Shown: positions 1 to 8,424, counted from the stretch's first letter. The stretch: 29,138 nucleotides of DNA from an uncultured Fibrobacteraceae bacterium (GCA_964384055.1 CAYLIV010000045.1:1-29138); one strand, 5' to 3'. Translations and numbers: made by a program. Notes: generated from the letters alone by a model not told the origin.

Positions 1-212
1 AGGGGCTACCATCTTTGGCACCTTCTTCACAAACATGTGGAGGAGGTGCTTTCTTTTTGCAGTAGGGGATGCATTGACCTGTTCCCATCCCGAATCAAAC
101 AACGCCGGGCGGTGTGAAGGGGAAAGCCTGCGTGAGTTGAAATCTGGTCCAGTCGGAAGTTGGTGAATCTGTCAGGTTGAACCAGGATCTCCTTCTTCAC
201 CAACACGGCAAC

Positions 213-1895
213 TCAGGAACGAGACGGCCCGGATTGATCCTCTGGAATGTTATCAAAGTTTCTGAGTACCCGCTCGATGATTGTATCCGCCGCTGCAGCT
301 TCTGCGGCGACAACATGGGTGGCGCCAGCTTTCTCCAGGCGCTTCACATCGGTTTCGTAGGTGGTTCGCACGGTGATCCGCAGATCGGGTGCCGCAAGTC
401 GCGCGGCTCCAGTTACCCGAGCCGTTGCGTCCGGATCGTTGATAGCGACCACGAGTTCGCTGGCATCGGCAACCCCGAGATGCTCGAGCACCTCTGCGCT
501 CGTAACGTCTCCGAAGCAAGCCGGCTCTCCCCGCCGAGCCGCCTCCCGAACATTCTCGCTGTTGAGATCGACGATAATGTACCGCGCACCTATCTGTGTG
601 AGAGAGCGGGCCAGACCCCTGCCCGTCAAGCCATACCCGGCGATGATGACGTGGTCCCTCAATGACTCGGATTTCTGTATCTCCGCTATGGTTTGCACCT
701 GGAGCAGACGCGTCAAGTGGTTGAGCTTTCCCAATCCAGCCGCCAGGTGGGGCCCCAGCGCGAGCCCAAATGGCGTGGCCAGCATCGAAAGGATGATTGC
801 CACAGTGAGATTGCCCCGAAGAGGTTCTTCCAGCAGGCCTGTTCCGCTCGCCGCTAGAAGGAGGACAAAGGCGAACTCTCCGACCTGGGACAAAGAAGTG
901 GCGGTTAGGATTCCCACACGCGCCGGAAGCCTCATGATGGAAGCGGCAAGGAAAATGATGATGAACTTACCAACGATGATGGCGCCGAATAGTCCGAGAA
1001 TGGGGAGCAGGTTATCGAGCACGTTCCCGAGATCGAGCAGCATGCCGATAGAGACGAAGAACACACTGGCGAGAACATCGCGCAACGGGACAAGATCGGA
1101 GATCGCCTGCTCGCGATACCGGCTACCGGAAACGACCAAGCCGGCGAGAAACGCGCCGAGGGCCAGCGAGACGCCCGCGGTTGATACCACCCAGGCGGTC
1201 CCGAGGCAGATCAGAAAGACGGAAAGTACGAAGAGATCGCGCTCCCGCGTGCGTGCAATTGCTTCGAGAAAACGAGGCACGACCAATCGCGACGCCACCA
1301 GTACGCCAGTGATCACTGCTGCAGCCTTCAGTAGCAGGACCAGCACGCTCGTACCAGCGCTGGCGGTGTCACAAAGGACAGGAATGAGTAGGACCATCGG
1401 TACGACACAGAGGTCCTGAAAGATCAGAATGCCAAGTGCCAGCCGACCGTGCGGCGTCTCGAGTTCTCCCCGGGTCGACAGGCCCCTCAGGACAATGGCA
1501 GTGCTCGATACGGCGATAATGAAACCCAGCAACAGTCCCGATCGAATGTCTCGCCCGAACAGATCATTGAGCCATAACACGATCAGGATAGTGGTGCCTA
1601 CCTGGACGGCGCCTCCTACGGCGATCGGTCTCCAGAGCCGGCGGACCCGGTTCAAGGAGAGCTCGAGTCCAATGCCGAAGAGGAGCAGCACAACGCCAAG
1701 TTCGGCGAGAGTTTCGACCTGGTGGATATCCTGAACAAGTCCCAGCGCGTTGGGCCCGATAACTGTTCCGGCGACGATGAACCCCGCGATAGACGGCACT
1801 CCCAAGCGGCGTAGAAACGCAACTACGGCAACAGCTGCCGCGAGAATTATAACCAGGTCCAAGAGGAAGACTAGCTCAGTCACAGCCGTTCCCAT
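213..1895 (-). CDS. Monovalent cation:proton antiporter-2 (CPA2) family, KefB/KefC-like, with C-terminal RCK/TrkA-N NAD-binding domain (copy 1)
   Basis: The 560-aa ORF starts at an ATG. About twelve hydrophobic helices show the Na+/H+-exchanger pattern (GPNALGLV, LLFGIGLE). They are followed by a Rossmann motif, IIAGYGLTGRGLARSL…IVDLN, typical of RCK domains. Confidence 0.85.
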   Translation of the reverse strand: MGTAVTELVFLLDLVIILAAAVAVVAFLRRLGVPSIAGFIVAGTVIGPNALGLVQDIHQVETLAELGVVLLLFGIGLELSLNRVRRLWRPIAVGGAVQVGTTILIVLWLNDLFGRDIRSGLLLGFIIAVSSTAIVLRGLSTRGELETPHGRLALGILIFQDLCVVPMVLLIPVLCDTASAGTSVLVLLLKAAAVITGVLVASRLVVPRFLEAIARTRERDLFVLSVFLICLGTAWVVSTAGVSLALGAFLAGLVVSGSRYREQAISDLVPLRDVLASVFFVSIGMLLDLGNVLDNLLPILGLFGAIIVGKFIIIFLAASIMRLPARVGILTATSLSQVGEFAFVLLLAASGTGLLEEPLRGNLTVAIILSMLATPFGLALGPHLAAGLGKLNHLTRLLQVQTIAEIQKSESLRDHVIIAGYGLTGRGLARSLTQIGARYIIVDLNSENVREAARRGEPACFGDVTSAEVLEHLGVADASELVVAINDPDATARVTGAARLAAPDLRITVRTTYETDVKRLEKAGATHVVAAEAAAADTIIERVLRNFDNIPEDQSGPSRS

Positions 1896-2269
1896 CCGAT
1901 AAACCCCGGAGTTTTACCAAGCGGAATTCAGCCAGTTTGTTGAATCCGCCGCCGCCGACCTTAACATCGCAGAACGGCCCGGTATACAGATTATAGCCAG
2001 TCAAAACCGGCTGACCACAGAGTACTTATCCTCTGAGCTGGCACAACTTTCATTACTCCAGATTAACAGGGCCAGGCCGCGAGCATGTGTGAAAGATCTT
2101 CGATTCTTGCCTGCTCCCACTTCATGGCGTCTGCTGACTACCATCTCGAATGCCTCCCTCACCGATGGTTGGGGGAGGCAATTCTGTGTGCGAAGCGAAC
2201 CGATCAGCACTCATGGCCGATCTGGCATGGTCGCGTCGAGGAAAGGCACCCTCCCGGCGCGAAGCCAGG

Positions 2270-2965
2270 TCAAGGTGACGATCCCGGCGAACCGACAGGA
2301 ATCACGAACCGCAAGACACAGAAAAAATGTAGAGTTGTGCCTGCCAGCACGAACAGATGCCAGACGGCGTGATGGTAAGGGAATCCACGCCAGATGTAGA
2401 AGATAGCGCCGGCACTGTAAGCCGCGCCACCCATTCCCAGCCAGATCAGAGCCTGCATCGGGAGTGCCGCGGCAAGTGGTCGAAAGGCGATGGCCACGAG
2501 CCAGCCGAGGGCGAGGTAGAAAACGAGGGACAACCTTTTCCAGGGACGGCGCCAGACGACCTCGTAGACTATTCCCAGGGCCGCCAGCCCCCATCCCAGG
2601 CCGATGAGGGTCCAACCCCAGCCACCGCCCAGCACGATCAGGGCGAACGGCGTGTAGGTGCCGGCGATGAGCAGGTAGATGGCGCCATAATCCAGCAACT
2701 CGAAGACGAACTTGGCGCGGGCCGCGGTGAGGGCGTGATAGAGGGTCGAGGCAGCGTACAGGGTCAGTATGGACCCGCCGAAAATGGTGACGCCCACCAC
2801 GGTCTGCGCATCGCCTGACGCCGCAGCACGCCAAACAAGAATCACCAGGCCCACCGCGCCACCGAGTGTTCCGAGGCCGTGGGTGATCGCATGGGCGATC
2901 TCCTCGCCGCGTGAGAAACGATCATGCTCAAAGGTGCCACGCAACGGGACTCTCTCCTGATCCAT
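2270..2965 (-). CDS. Hemolysin-III / PAQR (YqfA) family membrane protein (copy 1)
   Basis: The 231-aa ORF starts at an ATG and has seven predicted TM helices. Family motifs are present: EEIAHAITHGLG, TLYHA, LLDYGAIYLLIAGTYTPF and YHHAVWHLFV. Confidence 0.85.
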   Translation of the reverse strand: MDQERVPLRGTFEHDRFSRGEEIAHAITHGLGTLGGAVGLVILVWRAAASGDAQTVVGVTIFGGSILTLYAASTLYHALTAARAKFVFELLDYGAIYLLIAGTYTPFALIVLGGGWGWTLIGLGWGLAALGIVYEVVWRRPWKRLSLVFYLALGWLVAIAFRPLAAALPMQALIWLGMGGAAYSAGAIFYIWRGFPYHHAVWHLFVLAGTTLHFFCVLRFVIPVGSPGSSP

Positions 2966-3012
2966 GGTGACAGGGCCGGTTGGCTCTGGGGCCGCCCCAG
3001 TGCAGGTCTAGC

Positions 3013-3048
3013 AGAAAAAAGCCCCGATCTCCAGAGAAGACCGGGGCC
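3013..3048 (-). terminator. Intrinsic terminator downstream of the RRM gene (copy 1)
   Basis: A 6-bp GC stem (gccccg/cggggc) with a 15-nt loop is followed on the minus strand by U6 (plus-strand A6 at 3015..3020). A second small hairpin, gcgcc-ttccg-ggcgc, lies at 3071..3085. Confidence 0.5.
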
Positions 3049-3098
3049 GTGAGGAAAATCGGGATTCACCGCGCCTTCCGGGCGCCGTGATCAGGTGC

Positions 3099-3368
3099 TT
3101 ACCACCTCGAGCCGCCGCGAGGCTCACGCGGGCGCGCCTCGTTGACGTTGAGAGCTCGACCGTCGACTTCCCGGCCATTGATCGCCTGGATGGCCTGCAT
3201 GGCTTCGTTGTCGTTCTCCATCTCCACGAATCCGAATCCCCGCGAGCGGCCGGAATCGCGATCGGTGACGACCGTGGCGCTGTTGACGGCGCCATGCTCT
3301 GCAAACAGGGAATTGAGGTCGGGGTCGGACGTGTCGAAGCTGAGGTTGCCCACATAGATCTTCTTCAA
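3099..3368 (-). CDS. RRM-type (RNP-1/RNP-2) RNA-binding protein with Arg/Gly tail (copy 1); TTG start
   Basis: The 89-aa ORF carries RNP-2 (KIYVGNLSF) and RNP-1 (RGFGFVEM). The start codon is TTG, since the plus strand reads caa at 3366..3368. A Shine-Dalgarno AGGAAG lies 7 nt upstream. The only alternative start is an internal GTG. Confidence 0.8.
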   Translation of the reverse strand: MKKIYVGNLSFDTSDPDLNSLFAEHGAVNSATVVTDRDSGRSRGFGFVEMENDNEAMQAIQAINGREVDGRALNVNEARPREPRGGSRW

Positions 3369-3437
3369 GACTGCACTTCCTTCGGAACTCGGAATCCGCC
3401 GTCATTAACAGATATCGGTTCAACTCGACGGATCTAC

Positions 3438-3462
3438 AAAAAAAGCCGGCAGGGTTGCCGAC
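3438..3462 (-). terminator. Terminator-like hairpin plus U7 inside the RRM upstream leader (copy 1); candidate attenuator or 3' end of an upstream small RNA
   Basis: Minus strand: gucggca-accc-ugccggc followed by uuuuuuu (plus-strand A7 at 3438..3444). The stem is better on the minus strand (G·U) than on the plus strand (C/A mismatch). It lies about 75 nt upstream of the RRM TTG start. Confidence 0.45.
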
Positions 3463-3976
3463 CGGGCGCAATATAGGTGGATTCGGGGGAAACACAAGGT
3501 ATTTCTCCGATCATCGGTTCCCTGCCAATGGTCCCGGTACCGGATGCACCTCGCTGTCTGATCACTGTTATAGTACTACGGCGAGTGCCCCGGCTCGCGG
3601 CCTCGGGAGTGCTCCAGCCGCGGTCTGGGAGGTGGCAGCCCAGGATTCAAATCTTGTGGCTCGAGAGGTGCGGCGGAGGATCGTCCAGACAGGAGTATAT
3701 CAATTCCGGGACGGAAAACCACTTCCGACGGAGCACTCCGGGAGAGGTTCGCATACTGTCCCATACGGGCTACCATCTTTGGCACCTTCTTCACAAACAT
3801 GTGGAGGAGGTGCTTTCTTTTTGCAGTAGGGGATGCATTGACCTGTTCCCATCCCGAATCAAACAACGCCGGGCGGTGTGAAGGGGAAAGCCTGCGTGAG
3901 TTGAAATCTGGTCCAGTCGGAAGTTGGTGAATCTGTCAGGTTGAACCAGGATCTCCTTCTTCACCAACACGGCAAC

Positions 3977-5659
3977 TCAGGAACGAGACGGCCCGGATTG
4001 ATCCTCTGGAATGTTATCAAAGTTTCTGAGTACCCGCTCGATGATTGTATCCGCCGCTGCAGCTTCTGCGGCGACAACATGGGTGGCGCCAGCTTTCTCC
4101 AGGCGCTTCACATCGGTTTCGTAGGTGGTTCGCACGGTGATCCGCAGATCGGGTGCCGCAAGTCGCGCGGCTCCAGTTACCCGAGCCGTTGCGTCCGGAT
4201 CGTTGATAGCGACCACGAGTTCGCTGGCATCGGCAACCCCGAGATGCTCGAGCACCTCTGCGCTCGTAACGTCTCCGAAGCAAGCCGGCTCTCCCCGCCG
4301 AGCCGCCTCCCGAACATTCTCGCTGTTGAGATCGACGATAATGTACCGCGCACCTATCTGTGTGAGAGAGCGGGCCAGACCCCTGCCCGTCAAGCCATAC
4401 CCGGCGATGATGACGTGGTCCCTCAATGACTCGGATTTCTGTATCTCCGCTATGGTTTGCACCTGGAGCAGACGCGTCAAGTGGTTGAGCTTTCCCAATC
4501 CAGCCGCCAGGTGGGGCCCCAGCGCGAGCCCAAATGGCGTGGCCAGCATCGAAAGGATGATTGCCACAGTGAGATTGCCCCGAAGAGGTTCTTCCAGCAG
4601 GCCTGTTCCGCTCGCCGCTAGAAGGAGGACAAAGGCGAACTCTCCGACCTGGGACAAAGAAGTGGCGGTTAGGATTCCCACACGCGCCGGAAGCCTCATG
4701 ATGGAAGCGGCAAGGAAAATGATGATGAACTTACCAACGATGATGGCGCCGAATAGTCCGAGAATGGGGAGCAGGTTATCGAGCACGTTCCCGAGATCGA
4801 GCAGCATGCCGATAGAGACGAAGAACACACTGGCGAGAACATCGCGCAACGGGACAAGATCGGAGATCGCCTGCTCGCGATACCGGCTACCGGAAACGAC
4901 CAAGCCGGCGAGAAACGCGCCGAGGGCCAGCGAGACGCCCGCGGTTGATACCACCCAGGCGGTCCCGAGGCAGATCAGAAAGACGGAAAGTACGAAGAGA
5001 TCGCGCTCCCGCGTGCGTGCAATTGCTTCGAGAAAACGAGGCACGACCAATCGCGACGCCACCAGTACGCCAGTGATCACTGCTGCAGCCTTCAGTAGCA
5101 GGACCAGCACGCTCGTACCAGCGCTGGCGGTGTCACAAAGGACAGGAATGAGTAGGACCATCGGTACGACACAGAGGTCCTGAAAGATCAGAATGCCAAG
5201 TGCCAGCCGACCGTGCGGCGTCTCGAGTTCTCCCCGGGTCGACAGGCCCCTCAGGACAATGGCAGTGCTCGATACGGCGATAATGAAACCCAGCAACAGT
5301 CCCGATCGAATGTCTCGCCCGAACAGATCATTGAGCCATAACACGATCAGGATAGTGGTGCCTACCTGGACGGCGCCTCCTACGGCGATCGGTCTCCAGA
5401 GCCGGCGGACCCGGTTCAAGGAGAGCTCGAGTCCAATGCCGAAGAGGAGCAGCACAACGCCAAGTTCGGCGAGAGTTTCGACCTGGTGGATATCCTGAAC
5501 AAGTCCCAGCGCGTTGGGCCCGATAACTGTTCCGGCGACGATGAACCCCGCGATAGACGGCACTCCCAAGCGGCGTAGAAACGCAACTACGGCAACAGCT
5601 GCCGCGAGAATTATAACCAGGTCCAAGAGGAAGACTAGCTCAGTCACAGCCGTTCCCAT
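3977..5659 (-). CDS. KefB/KefC-like CPA2 antiporter with RCK domain (copy 2, identical translation)
   Basis: Identical 560-aa translation, offset +3,764. Confidence 0.85.
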   Translation of the reverse strand: MGTAVTELVFLLDLVIILAAAVAVVAFLRRLGVPSIAGFIVAGTVIGPNALGLVQDIHQVETLAELGVVLLLFGIGLELSLNRVRRLWRPIAVGGAVQVGTTILIVLWLNDLFGRDIRSGLLLGFIIAVSSTAIVLRGLSTRGELETPHGRLALGILIFQDLCVVPMVLLIPVLCDTASAGTSVLVLLLKAAAVITGVLVASRLVVPRFLEAIARTRERDLFVLSVFLICLGTAWVVSTAGVSLALGAFLAGLVVSGSRYREQAISDLVPLRDVLASVFFVSIGMLLDLGNVLDNLLPILGLFGAIIVGKFIIIFLAASIMRLPARVGILTATSLSQVGEFAFVLLLAASGTGLLEEPLRGNLTVAIILSMLATPFGLALGPHLAAGLGKLNHLTRLLQVQTIAEIQKSESLRDHVIIAGYGLTGRGLARSLTQIGARYIIVDLNSENVREAARRGEPACFGDVTSAEVLEHLGVADASELVVAINDPDATARVTGAARLAAPDLRITVRTTYETDVKRLEKAGATHVVAAEAAAADTIIERVLRNFDNIPEDQSGPSRS

Positions 5660-6033
5660 CCGATAAACCCCGGAGTTTTACCAAGCGGAATTCAGCCAGT
5701 TTGTTGAATCCGCCGCCGCCGACCTTAACATCGCAGAACGGCCCGGTATACAGATTATAGCCAGTCAAAACCGGCTGACCACAGAGTACTTATCCTCTGA
5801 GCTGGCACAACTTTCATTACTCCAGATTAACAGGGCCAGGCCGCGAGCATGTGTGAAAGATCTTCGATTCTTGCCTGCTCCCACTTCATGGCGTCTGCTG
5901 ACTACCATCTCGAATGCCTCCCTCACCGATGGTTGGGGGAGGCAATTCTGTGTGCGAAGCGAACCGATCAGCACTCATGGCCGATCTGGCATGGTCGCGT
6001 CGAGGAAAGGCACCCTCCCGGCGCGAAGCCAGG

Positions 6034-6729
6034 TCAAGGTGACGATCCCGGCGAACCGACAGGAATCACGAACCGCAAGACACAGAAAAAATGTAGAGTT
6101 GTGCCTGCCAGCACGAACAGATGCCAGACGGCGTGATGGTAAGGGAATCCACGCCAGATGTAGAAGATAGCGCCGGCACTGTAAGCCGCGCCACCCATTC
6201 CCAGCCAGATCAGAGCCTGCATCGGGAGTGCCGCGGCAAGTGGTCGAAAGGCGATGGCCACGAGCCAGCCGAGGGCGAGGTAGAAAACGAGGGACAACCT
6301 TTTCCAGGGACGGCGCCAGACGACCTCGTAGACTATTCCCAGGGCCGCCAGCCCCCATCCCAGGCCGATGAGGGTCCAACCCCAGCCACCGCCCAGCACG
6401 ATCAGGGCGAACGGCGTGTAGGTGCCGGCGATGAGCAGGTAGATGGCGCCATAATCCAGCAACTCGAAGACGAACTTGGCGCGGGCCGCGGTGAGGGCGT
6501 GATAGAGGGTCGAGGCAGCGTACAGGGTCAGTATGGACCCGCCGAAAATGGTGACGCCCACCACGGTCTGCGCATCGCCTGACGCCGCAGCACGCCAAAC
6601 AAGAATCACCAGGCCCACCGCGCCACCGAGTGTTCCGAGGCCGTGGGTGATCGCATGGGCGATCTCCTCGCCGCGTGAGAAACGATCATGCTCAAAGGTG
6701 CCACGCAACGGGACTCTCTCCTGATCCAT
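6034..6729 (-). CDS. Hemolysin-III / PAQR family membrane protein (copy 2)
   Basis: Identical 231-aa translation, offset +3,764. Confidence 0.85.
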   Translation of the reverse strand: MDQERVPLRGTFEHDRFSRGEEIAHAITHGLGTLGGAVGLVILVWRAAASGDAQTVVGVTIFGGSILTLYAASTLYHALTAARAKFVFELLDYGAIYLLIAGTYTPFALIVLGGGWGWTLIGLGWGLAALGIVYEVVWRRPWKRLSLVFYLALGWLVAIAFRPLAAALPMQALIWLGMGGAAYSAGAIFYIWRGFPYHHAVWHLFVLAGTTLHFFCVLRFVIPVGSPGSSP

Positions 6730-6776
6730 GGTGACAGGGCCGGTTGGCTCTGGGGCCGCCCCAGTGCAGGTCTAGC

Positions 6777-6812
6777 AGAAAAAAGCCCCGATCTCCAGAG
6801 AAGACCGGGGCC
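6777..6812 (-). terminator. Intrinsic terminator downstream of RRM gene (copy 2)
   Basis: Same sequence as 3013..3048. Confidence 0.5.
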
Positions 6813-6862
6813 GTGAGGAAAATCGGGATTCACCGCGCCTTCCGGGCGCCGTGATCAGGTGC

Positions 6863-7132
6863 TTACCACCTCGAGCCGCCGCGAGGCTCACGCGGGCGCG
6901 CCTCGTTGACGTTGAGAGCTCGACCGTCGACTTCCCGGCCATTGATCGCCTGGATGGCCTGCATGGCTTCGTTGTCGTTCTCCATCTCCACGAATCCGAA
7001 TCCCCGCGAGCGGCCGGAATCGCGATCGGTGACGACCGTGGCGCTGTTGACGGCGCCATGCTCTGCAAACAGGGAATTGAGGTCGGGGTCGGACGTGTCG
7101 AAGCTGAGGTTGCCCACATAGATCTTCTTCAA
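6863..7132 (-). CDS. RRM-type RNA-binding protein (copy 2); TTG start
   Basis: Identical 89-aa translation, offset +3,764. This copy keeps the native upstream region, which continues into unique sequence at 7540. Confidence 0.8.
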   Translation of the reverse strand: MKKIYVGNLSFDTSDPDLNSLFAEHGAVNSATVVTDRDSGRSRGFGFVEMENDNEAMQAIQAINGREVDGRALNVNEARPREPRGGSRW

Positions 7133-7201
7133 GACTGCACTTCCTTCGGAACTCGGAATCCGCCGTCATTAACAGATATCGGTTCAACTCGACGGATCTA
7201 C

Positions 7202-7226
7202 AAAAAAAGCCGGCAGGGTTGCCGAC
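7202..7226 (-). terminator. Terminator-like hairpin plus U7 in RRM leader (copy 2)
   Basis: Same sequence as 3438..3462. Confidence 0.45.
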
Positions 7227-7712
7227 CGGGCGCAATATAGGTGGATTCGGGGGAAACACAAGGTATTTCTCCGATCATCGGTTCCCTGCCAATGGTCCCG
7301 GTACCGGATGCACCTCGCTGTCTGATCACTGTTATAGTACTACGGCGAGTGCCCCGGCTCGCGGCCTCGGGAGTGCTCCAGCCGCGGTCTGGGAGGTGGC
7401 AGCCCAGGATTCAAATCTTGTGGCTCGAGAGGTGCGGCGGAGGATCGTCCAGACAGGAGTATATCAATTCCGGGACGGAAAACCACTTCCGACGGAGCAC
7501 TCCGGGAGAGGTTCGCATACTGTCCCATACGGGCTACCAGTTTCCTGAGTACGGCTTCCCCCAGCGGAGGGAGGCCGTCTCTGTTTCAAGACAGAAATCA
7601 CCGCAGCCACAACCGACTCTTGCGCACCGGGCCGATTTGTCTATTCTTCCCTCGATCGGAATCATCCAGATGGCCGCTGCCGGCCACGCTCCAATCTCGG
7701 AAAGGCAACGCC

Positions 7713-8234
7713 ATGAGTGAACGACCGGAAATCACGCCCGACCTGATGGTCGGACAGTTCCTGGACGCGTATCCCGAGCTGGAATCCGAGCTCATTGCGA
7801 TCGCGCCGCCTTTCGAGAAACTGAGCAATCCGGTCCTGAGGCAGACGTTGGCCAAGATCACCTCCCTGCGCCAGGCCGCCCAGGTGGGGGGCGTCTCGCT
7901 CGGTGCGATGATCGGTCGCCTGCGCCAGGCTGCCGGCATCGAAGACGAATGGTCCGGTGACGAAGGCAGCGATACCGCCAGGCCCGAATGGCTCGACCGG
8001 GTCGAAGTGGTCGACGTCGATGACGCGCGCGCCGAGATCGAGCGAGGTGAACATCCCTTACCCAGGGTGATGGACGCGCTGAAGAACCTGCAACCGGGCC
8101 AGGCCCAGGTGCTGATCACGCCGTTCATGCCGGGACCCTTGCTGGACAAGGTCAGGGAACAGGGATTCACCGTCTGGAGCCAAGCGGTCGGCGAAGAGGA
8201 ATTCCACAATACCTTCGCCCGGCTGGATCCTTGA
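7713..8234 (+). CDS. DUF1858-like (hybrid-cluster-protein-associated redox-disulfide) N-domain fused to a DUF2249-like C-domain; function unknown
   Basis: The in-frame ATG at 7713 follows GGAAAGG and gives 173 aa starting MSERPEITPDLMVGQFLDAYPEL. The N-terminal half resembles DUF1858 (ITPDMTI.E.L..YPE). The C-terminal half, VVDVD…PLPRVMDALKNLQPGQ.LVL…P.PLL..L, resembles DUF2249. The longer ORF from 7620 runs into the RRM upstream region and is unlikely to be coding. Confidence 0.55.
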   Translation: MSERPEITPDLMVGQFLDAYPELESELIAIAPPFEKLSNPVLRQTLAKITSLRQAAQVGGVSLGAMIGRLRQAAGIEDEWSGDEGSDTARPEWLDRVEVVDVDDARAEIERGEHPLPRVMDALKNLQPGQAQVLITPFMPGPLLDKVREQGFTVWSQAVGEEEFHNTFARLDP

Positions 8235-8424
8235 AAGCGGAGCAGGCTCTACGTCGATCAGCTGGGCTGCGCCGTCGTGTTATGAAAAGCGCCGAGCAGC
8301 CTTGATCGCGGGGTTGTTGCCTCGGGGCAACAGGCTCCGGTAGCGGACCGCATCGCACTGGTTCGGGATCACGAAGTTAGCGGCTGGACGAAGCACGACC
8401 ACCGGCACTAGCAGGTGTACCGCG

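Follow-up and report, generated by a model that had tools for sequence, protein, structure and literature searches.

The DNA shown above raises the question of why a hairpin that resembles a transcription terminator lies upstream of, and on the same strand as, the gene of a small RNA-binding protein. It belongs to a window of 29,138 nucleotides, which is the whole stretch of DNA that was analysed, and in this window the gene occurs twice:

6863..7132, minus strand: gene for an RRM-domain RNA-binding protein, copy 2 (native), 89 aa, TTG start, from the ORF list
7140..7146, minus strand: Shine-Dalgarno sequence (SD) AAGGAAG of copy 2, 7 nt 5′ of the TTG start
3099..3368, minus strand: RRM gene, copy 1 (duplicate), same sequence as copy 2

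The answer developed below is that the hairpin, here called P1, probably belongs to a cis-acting leader, conserved among relatives and about 95 nt long, that carries two hairpins on the RRM mRNA and takes part in its feedback control. The identical RRM protein matched PF00076 (RRM_1) in a Pfam search, and its homologues are of 89 aa. The reading frame with a TTG start that an earlier note on this DNA had pointed out was seen in both copies, with AAGGAAG 7 nt upstream. JGI labels some of the RRM homologues as cold-inducible.

The two copies of the gene lie in a unit of 3764 nt that is repeated in tandem. Window positions 1..3775 equal 3765..7539 except at position 2, which places the junction at 3775/3776; the shared repeat starts 2 nt into the window. 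Copy 2 can be considered the native one because contigs of the same species (L001, L002 and L003) read through 7539/7540 and because L001, from a 113-kb scaffold, contains only one copy of the unit. The native copy is bounded by a divergent DUF1858/DUF2249 gene (7713..8234), and the read-through in L001-L003 agrees with the earlier proposal that copy 2 is the native arrangement, with a spacer shared with this DUF1858-like gene.

The RRM loci of relatives were gathered from related genomes and metagenomes, and they provided 15 distinct leaders. A protein-guided scan of a genome collection gave L005-L008, in which the leader is present, and a protein-guided scan of metagenomes gave L085, the sole added leader-bearing locus among the matches listed. 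The other ~150 loci listed, with RRM genes of at most about 70% identity (Acidobacteriota, Planctomycetota and others), were used as negative controls. Closer relatives were collected locus by locus. Across the 15 distinct leader-bearing relatives the identity of the RRM protein is 64-89%. The nearest genomes are uncultured Fibrobacteraceae MAGs (79% protein identity) and Candidatus Krumholzibacteriia (68-76%), and a neighbourhood of the RRM gene with tRNA-Glu(CUC) and tRNA-Gln(CUG), the tRNA pair lying downstream of the RRM gene, is common to L007 (Krumholzibacteriia; 4268..4457) and L001 (9358..9579). The nearest loci and this tRNA synteny suggest that the source of the DNA is an uncultured relative of Krumholzibacteriia and of Fibrobacteraceae-labelled MAGs.

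When the whole 580-nt spacer upstream of the RRM gene was used as nhmmer query, only its proximal 130-240 nt were matched in relatives, and the distal ~450 nt had no counterpart in them. In the alignments, conservation sets in abruptly at the motif cCTTGyr, which is followed by 16 unconserved bases and then by TAnnnT; from 6-8 nt past TAnnnT to the start codon nearly all positions are conserved. The part common to the 15 relatives is therefore only the proximal ~130 nt, with the promoter, P1, a U-rich tail, a second hairpin (P2) with its apical P2a, the SD and a UUG or GUG start codon. These elements are located in the window as follows:

7256..7261, minus strand: −35-like hexamer TTGTGT (cCTTGyr), copy 2, with a 16-nt spacer to the −10 box
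7234..7239, minus strand: −10-like hexamer TATATT, copy 2, TAnnnT in 15/15 relatives
7208..7227, minus strand: P1 hairpin, copy 2, 8 bp, loop ACCC, terminator-like, predicted mRNA 5′ end
7202..7208, minus strand: U7 run, copy 2, whose first U is the last P1 pair; U-rich single-stranded P1-P2 linker
7157..7198, minus strand: P2 hairpin domain, copy 2, with a 9-bp stem of 7198..7190 with 7165..7157
7262..7509, no strand: non-conserved spacer, which holds a 10-bp inverted repeat at 7370..7379 and 7494..7503
3369..3497, minus strand: copy 1 leader and promoter, every part intact
3376..3382, 3393..3434, 3438..3444 and 3444..3463, minus strand: SD, P2, U-run and P1 of copy 1
3470..3475 and 3492..3497, minus strand: −10 box and −35 box of copy 1

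Everything beyond this common part varies. The gene upstream is, depending on the relative, an ABC transporter, a sulfatase, a PadR operon, a radical-SAM gene or a DUF1858-like gene, and the intergenic spacer 5′ of the RRM gene ranges from ~190 to 630 nt. In the window, folding of the spacer was no better than that of shuffles (7133..7620, z −0.84; 7262..7620, minus strand, z 0.03; 7262..7712, plus strand, z −0.53), and spacer ORFs of 62, 109 and 159 aa had no Pfam match. The earlier note had described a structured leader of more than 400 nt. The non-coding DNA is there, but a conserved or structured leader of that length is not, with conservation beginning ~130 nt before the start codon. Since conservation covers the proximal ~130 nt only and the distal part is both unconserved and unstructured, the leader itself would be of ~95 nt.

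This length depends on where transcription starts. CTTG is found in 14 of the 15 relatives at a fixed spacing of 16-17 nt from the −10 box, and the −10 box ends 6-8 nt 5′ of P1 in all 15. In sigma70 promoters the TTG of the −35 box and the TA...T of the −10 box are the positions that matter most, and here both are present and in register. A strict promoter scan of 6700..8300 called no promoter-like site; the conserved promoter was missed because its −35 box matches at 3 of 6 positions only. From the position of the boxes, transcription is predicted to start at ~7226-7229, no more than about 2 nt from where P1 begins, which would give a 5′ UTR of ~95 nt (108-114 nt counting the SD and the first codons). 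With the promoter placing the start at P1, the mRNA would begin with a GC-rich 8-bp stem-loop. One subclade calls for caution in this respect: in L172, L165, L176 and L006, P1 can be extended to 12 bp, the four added nucleotides lie only 2 nt past the −10 box, and the extension carries one compensatory exchange, C-G to G-C (for example L172 2399..2426). A 12-bp P1 in this subclade conflicts with the predicted start and would need an unusually close or an upstream start.

The consensus fold obtained with RNAalifold was equal with 10 and with 15 distinct leaders. It consists of P1 (8 bp, loop ACCA or ACCC), the U-rich linker, P2 (9 bp), the small apical P2a and then a single-stranded stretch that bears the SD. 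In the window, P1 corresponds to GGTCGGCA-ACCC-TGCCGGCT at 3463..3444 and 7227..7208 on the minus strand, with a run of seven T next to it (3444..3438 and 7208..7202); the P1 of the native copy (7227..7208) is GGUCGGCA-ACCC-UGCCGGCU, then U7. A pattern scan of 6700..8300 found 4 terminator-like sites, P1 with U7 among them, compared with 0.8 ± 1.1 in shuffles. When P1 is read on the RRM-sense strand, two of its eight pairs are G·U; on the opposite strand they would be A/C mismatches. G·U pairs recur in relatives. Both observations of the earlier note on this hairpin stand: it is followed by U7 upstream of the TTG in either copy, and its stem is better on the RRM-sense strand. The leader alone has a fold z of −2.5. 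The minimum free energy structure of the window's own sequence keeps P1 and rearranges the P2 region, where the apical P2a is weak, and most relatives reach the consensus fold unaided.

The two helices were also examined by comparison of the 15 leaders. In the model-fitted alignment, 92% of the paired cells can form a pair, whereas shuffles gave 83 ± 1.2% (0/500 reached 92%) and sliding of the partners gave 22-43%; cells changed on both sides numbered 29 against 11.5 expected. In P1, 98% of the cells are paired and 3 of the 8 pairs have changed on both sides (GC to AU, UA to CG and AU to GC, in either direction), and P2 displays both-sided changes in 4 of its 9 pairs. A structure-blind MAFFT alignment led to the same helices, and in 8 of the 19 pairs both sides had changed. 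P1 and P2 are supported by compensatory changes as well as by the sense-strand G·U pairs. Covariation against orthologous upstream regions had been suggested earlier as a check of the hairpin; the hairpin is kept with compensatory changes in the 15 relatives, and these also support the idea that the RRM mRNA has a structured 5′ leader with a regulatory role, formed on the sense strand, in which the hairpin is the key element.

A covariance model, R1, built from 10 of the leaders, matched the window at 3360..3467 and 7124..7231 (both 101 bits) and recovered five leaders outside its training set (L005, 85 bits; L177, 78; L180, 63; L179, 59; L008, 29.5), each of them directly upstream of an RRM gene. 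All 18 R1 matches end 9 nt inside the RRM coding sequence. Upstream of the ~150 RRM genes of other phyla (Acidobacteriota, Planctomycetota, Chloroflexota and others) R1 had no match. The leader is confined to RRM genes of one lineage and is absent from Rfam: a search of Rfam 15 gave no family match for the window, either at the gathering threshold over the whole window or at E <= 10 over 7050..7800, and no family, RF01697 and RF01766 included, matched in 9 relatives at E <= 1; only tRNAs and chance matches appeared in these searches. That the region could be matched to no known RNA family, as had been noted before, is confirmed by this covariance search of the window, which included Chlorobi-RRM. 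In L165 (1861..2181, minus strand), L166 (1726..2046, minus strand) and L172 (1..131, minus strand), the RRM gene has a longer second one of 91 or 106 aa nearby, and R1 found no leader before this second gene.

The downstream end of the leader is as constant as its helices. AAGGAAG is found in 12 of 15 relatives and one-base variants of it in L006, L179 and L008. The start codon is non-AUG in all 15 leader-bearing RRM genes (UUG in 9 and GUG in 6; in the window, 7132..7130), whereas among 127 RRM genes from other lineages, which were scanned roughly, ~80% had ATG and only one had TTG. A conserved weak start codon fits a translation that is tuned via the leader.

Put together, these elements suggest a control of both feedback and stability of the RRM mRNA as the likeliest function of the leader. 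According to this proposal, the sigma70-like promoter (cCTTGyr-16 nt-TAnnnT) would start the mRNA at P1, which would be followed in order by the U-rich single-stranded tract, P2/P2a, the exposed SD AAGGAAG and the UUG or GUG start. P1 at the 5′ terminus may shield the transcript from 5′-end-dependent decay, the RRM protein or its paralogues may bind the U-rich linker of their own leader, and the weak start codon would leave translation dependent on the conformation of the leader. P1 with the U tract could, in addition, behave as a leaky promoter-proximal pause or terminator. In this manner the leader would set, via feedback, the level of an abundant RNA-binding protein of the cold-shock type. 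The transcription start, protein binding, the direction of the regulation and its mechanism are all inferred.

The main alternative is that P1 and the U-run constitute a true intrinsic terminator, that is, an attenuator at about +28 where most transcripts stop, with read-through when a melting factor (the RRM protein or another chaperone) or a given condition blocks the formation of P1. In all 15 relatives the stem is GC-rich and of 8-12 bp (dG37 of −12 to −22 kcal/mol), the 8 nt on the 3′ side of P1 include 4-7 U, and 11 of the 15 pass a lenient terminator rule. In the window, L085, L005 and L008 the U run directly abuts the stem; the window is without a 3-nt spacer that is present in most close relatives, and it is this missing spacer, which lets U7 abut the stem, that makes the window's P1 look so canonical. 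Csp-type chaperones are known to act as antiterminators. Against the attenuator, L172, L170, L175 and L006 fail even the lenient rule, with a tail that is short, interrupted or offset (poor tails such as UUCUU and UUCCU, or an offset of 3 nt). Further, an attenuator would be expected to have an alternative antiterminator pairing, but no conserved one was found upstream or downstream, and when the 55 nt before P1 were added to the consensus fold (−55..+50), they took part in no conserved pairing. Finally, self-antitermination amounts to positive feedback, whereas the Bacteroides rbp genes are under negative feedback (PMC13370968). An attenuator of this kind is the less likely reading but a serious rival. 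P1 and the U tract are better read as being primarily a 5′-terminal stem-loop with a U-rich single strand, which may also pause or terminate part of the transcripts.

A bolder version of the same idea adds a role for the duplication, and its evaluation requires the boundaries of the repeated unit:

1..11, plus strand: genuine 3′ end of tRNA-Glu(CUC), last 11 nt AGGGGCTACCA, left boundary of the unit and window start
7510..7539, plus strand: degenerate copy of the tRNA-Glu(CUC) 3′ end, GGTTCGcatacTGTCCCaTAcGGGCTACCA, right boundary of the unit, by comparison with the tRNA-Glu of L001
3746..3775, plus strand: tRNA-Glu-like segment of copy 1, at the duplication junction 3775/3776

The complete tRNA-Glu was located by ARAGORN in L001 (9358..9433), where it adjoins the left of window position 1; ARAGORN found no tRNA in the window, at whose start there are 11 nt of the tRNA only. 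Fifteen of the last 17 nt of 7510..7539 are identical to the real tRNA-Glu. The convincing similarity is limited to the 3′-terminal 17-30 nt, since the full-length tRNA-Glu scored 32 against the spacer (shuffle mean 25.6, maximum 36), which is not significant alone, and in L007 the tRNA end does not occur a second time. At the junction (3765..3775) the sequence is that of the spacer (AC), which places the crossover within GGGCTACCA. L004, an independent assembly from another sample, has its position 1 at the exact junction base (window 3775 / 7539), which suggests that the assembly graph really branches there, at the junction of a duplication or circle or at a difference between strains. The 3764-bp unit is thus flanked by a direct repeat of a tRNA 3′ end in an att-like arrangement. 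A tRNA-targeted integrative element was considered: the att-like repeat is present, but no integrase or recombinase was seen in the unit, among the Pfam matches in ±6 kb of L001 or in ten large ORFs of the window, and the neighbourhood, which is found also in L007, is partly ancestral. The genes of the unit are only those of an Na+/H+ exchanger, HlyIII and the RRM protein; the RRM-HlyIII adjacency is also seen in L170, L172 and L175. The repeat may have arisen by a tandem duplication of recent date, from a circle that was excised and then traversed by the assembler, or as an artefact. The duplication may be a variant of a subpopulation or an assembly effect.

Two further hairpins were observed close to these boundaries. 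One, of 10 bp and GC-rich, lies at 7551..7578 (plus strand), 12 nt past the tRNA-like segment, and is followed by CTCTGTTTCA; it could be the relic terminator of a tRNA copy that has decayed, or it could belong to the sequence upstream of the DUF1858 gene. The other, GCACCTTCTTCAC...GTGGAGGAGGTGC then TTTCTTTTT, lies just past the tRNA-Glu end (3776..3976 / 12..212) and is probably a terminator common to the tRNA and to the convergent Na+/H+ exchanger gene.

The bolder version holds that read-through of a sensor-less promoter-proximal terminator is set by the RRM protein on a nascent RNA of 28 nt and that, besides, the 3.76-kb unit is amplified or excised via the tRNA-Glu repeats. If true, it would provide a minimal protein-controlled attenuation loop as cold-shock or chaperone autoregulator in those lineages of the Fibrobacteres-Chlorobi-Bacteroidetes (FCB) group in which RRM proteins seem to serve as chaperones, as has been shown for Bacteroides, and recombination of the RRM unit would lead to variation in the gene dosage of the regulator in natural populations. 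This combination is distinctly improbable.

The breakpoint, which had earlier been placed inside the leader, turned out to lie ~280 nt upstream of the −35 box; the leader is not truncated, the promoter and the UTR of both copies are intact, and the position of the breakpoint says nothing on the function of the leader.

A plain terminator that overlaps the promoter region and insulates the RRM gene from upstream read-through would suit those relatives in which the upstream gene is on the same strand (L165/L166 and L172-L174), a subclade in which P1 reaches 12 bp. However, the window and L167, L170, L175, L176, L177 and L179 have a divergent upstream gene, which leaves nothing to terminate, and P1 is still kept with compensatory changes; moreover, P1 lies downstream of the −10 box. 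Insulation is consequently very unlikely to be the role of P1. Still less probable is an RNA thermometer, in which a temperature-dependent refolding of P2 together with a UUYC/GGAA mini-hairpin would expose or hide the SD. The UUYC just 5′ of the SD is conserved, the JGI label of some homologues points to cold induction and the literature on cspA and rbp genes raises the question (PMC13370968), but at 10, 25 and 37 °C the SD is predicted to be unpaired with a probability of 0.3-0.6 and with no consistent trend across relatives, and no covariation was found for a helix occluding the SD.

Least credible of all is the proposal of the earlier note that the hairpin is the terminator, and therefore the 3′ end, of a ~300-nt small RNA transcribed in the direction of the RRM gene: the hairpin is terminator-like, on the correct strand and preceded by ~340 nt of non-coding DNA, but the hairpin is conserved and the upstream body is found in no relative, only the −35/−10 boxes being kept in spacers of ~190-630 nt; the distance from the hairpin to the upstream gene is only 60-130 nt in relatives such as L165 and L172; the distal fold has a z of 0.03; there is no Rfam match; the conserved promoter lies directly upstream of the hairpin; and no promoter-like site of its own was called in 6700..8300. 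The long-range complementarity reported in the same region is exact, as GGAGTGCTCC (3606..3615) and GGAGCACTCC (3730..3739) are perfect reverse complements, but it does not amount to a meaningful pairing: an exact inverted repeat of at least 10 nt occurs in 15% of dinucleotide shuffles of the 580-nt spacer. Each arm of the repeat is itself a near-palindrome.

The two-hairpin leader of the RRM mRNA is a known kind of regulatory leader that lies outside every catalogued family, and no general concept is changed by it. Among its analogues, the E. coli cspA leader (RF01766) also belongs to the gene of an abundant RNA chaperone and has a conserved stem-loop near the 5′ end (Xia et al. 2002, cited in PMC1636342). 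This cold-box stem-loop of cspA has reportedly been implicated in mRNA stability, and the cspA leader is implicated in negative autoregulation or attenuation. In contrast to the RRM leader, however, the cspA protein is an unrelated Csp with an OB fold, its UTR is of 159 nt with an AUG start, and RF01766 has no match here. The 5′ UTRs of cyanobacterial rbp genes are also UTRs of RRM genes, and that of Anabaena rbpA1 is reported to control transcript accumulation at low temperature (Ehira et al. 2005, cited in PMC4152365); they come from another phylum and have no detectable sequence relation to the leader.

The closest catalogued element is Chlorobi-RRM (RF01697), the only RRM-gene leader motif in the catalogue. 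Its architecture is that of two stem-loops followed by a terminator. In both cases a conserved structured element occupies the presumed 5′ UTR of single-RRM genes within one lineage of the FCB group, and some members of Chlorobi-RRM are annotated with terminator-like hairpins, in which they resemble the leader described here. The differences are as clear: the Chlorobi-RRM covariance model gives no match in the window even at E <= 10, the Chlorobi hairpin is CCARYGGUUGG as opposed to GGCYGGCA-ACCA-UGCCRGCY here, the terminator-like hairpin comes first and P2 after it instead of the terminator being last, and the Chlorobi genes start with AUG in the alignment whereas the start here is always UUG or GUG. 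Weinberg et al. (2010; PMC2864571) present Chlorobi-RRM as a leader motif of RRM genes that occurs in Chlorobi only, and they propose an autoregulatory role for it.

In Bacteroides thetaiotaomicron, three RRM-1 proteins are needed for cold adaptation; the 5′ UTRs of their genes, rbpA, rbpB and rbpC, measure 122-155 nt, and experiments have shown that each gene is repressed by its own product and by those of the others, via promoter and 5′ UTR (PMC13370968), and RbpB crosslinks to its own mRNA with a preference for AU-rich sites (PMC11697453). These UTRs and Chlorobi-RRM (PMC2864571) give substance to the analogy with leaders of cold-shock and RRM genes that had been drawn for this locus at the outset. 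The likeness to B. thetaiotaomicron concerns the protein family (~90-aa RRM-1 proteins of the FCB group), the size of the UTR (122-155 nt there and ~95 nt here) and the regulation, no UTR structure being published in PMC13370968 or PMC11697453. In Bacteroidota and relatives, the role of global RNA chaperone and cold-shock factor is increasingly being assigned to single-RRM proteins, and feedback through the 5′ UTR is known for them without a defined RNA structure. The leader described here offers such a structure: its two helices are supported by covariation, its start is precisely predicted and its weak start codon is conserved. It constitutes both a candidate for a new Rfam family and a compact test object for the self-control of RRM proteins.
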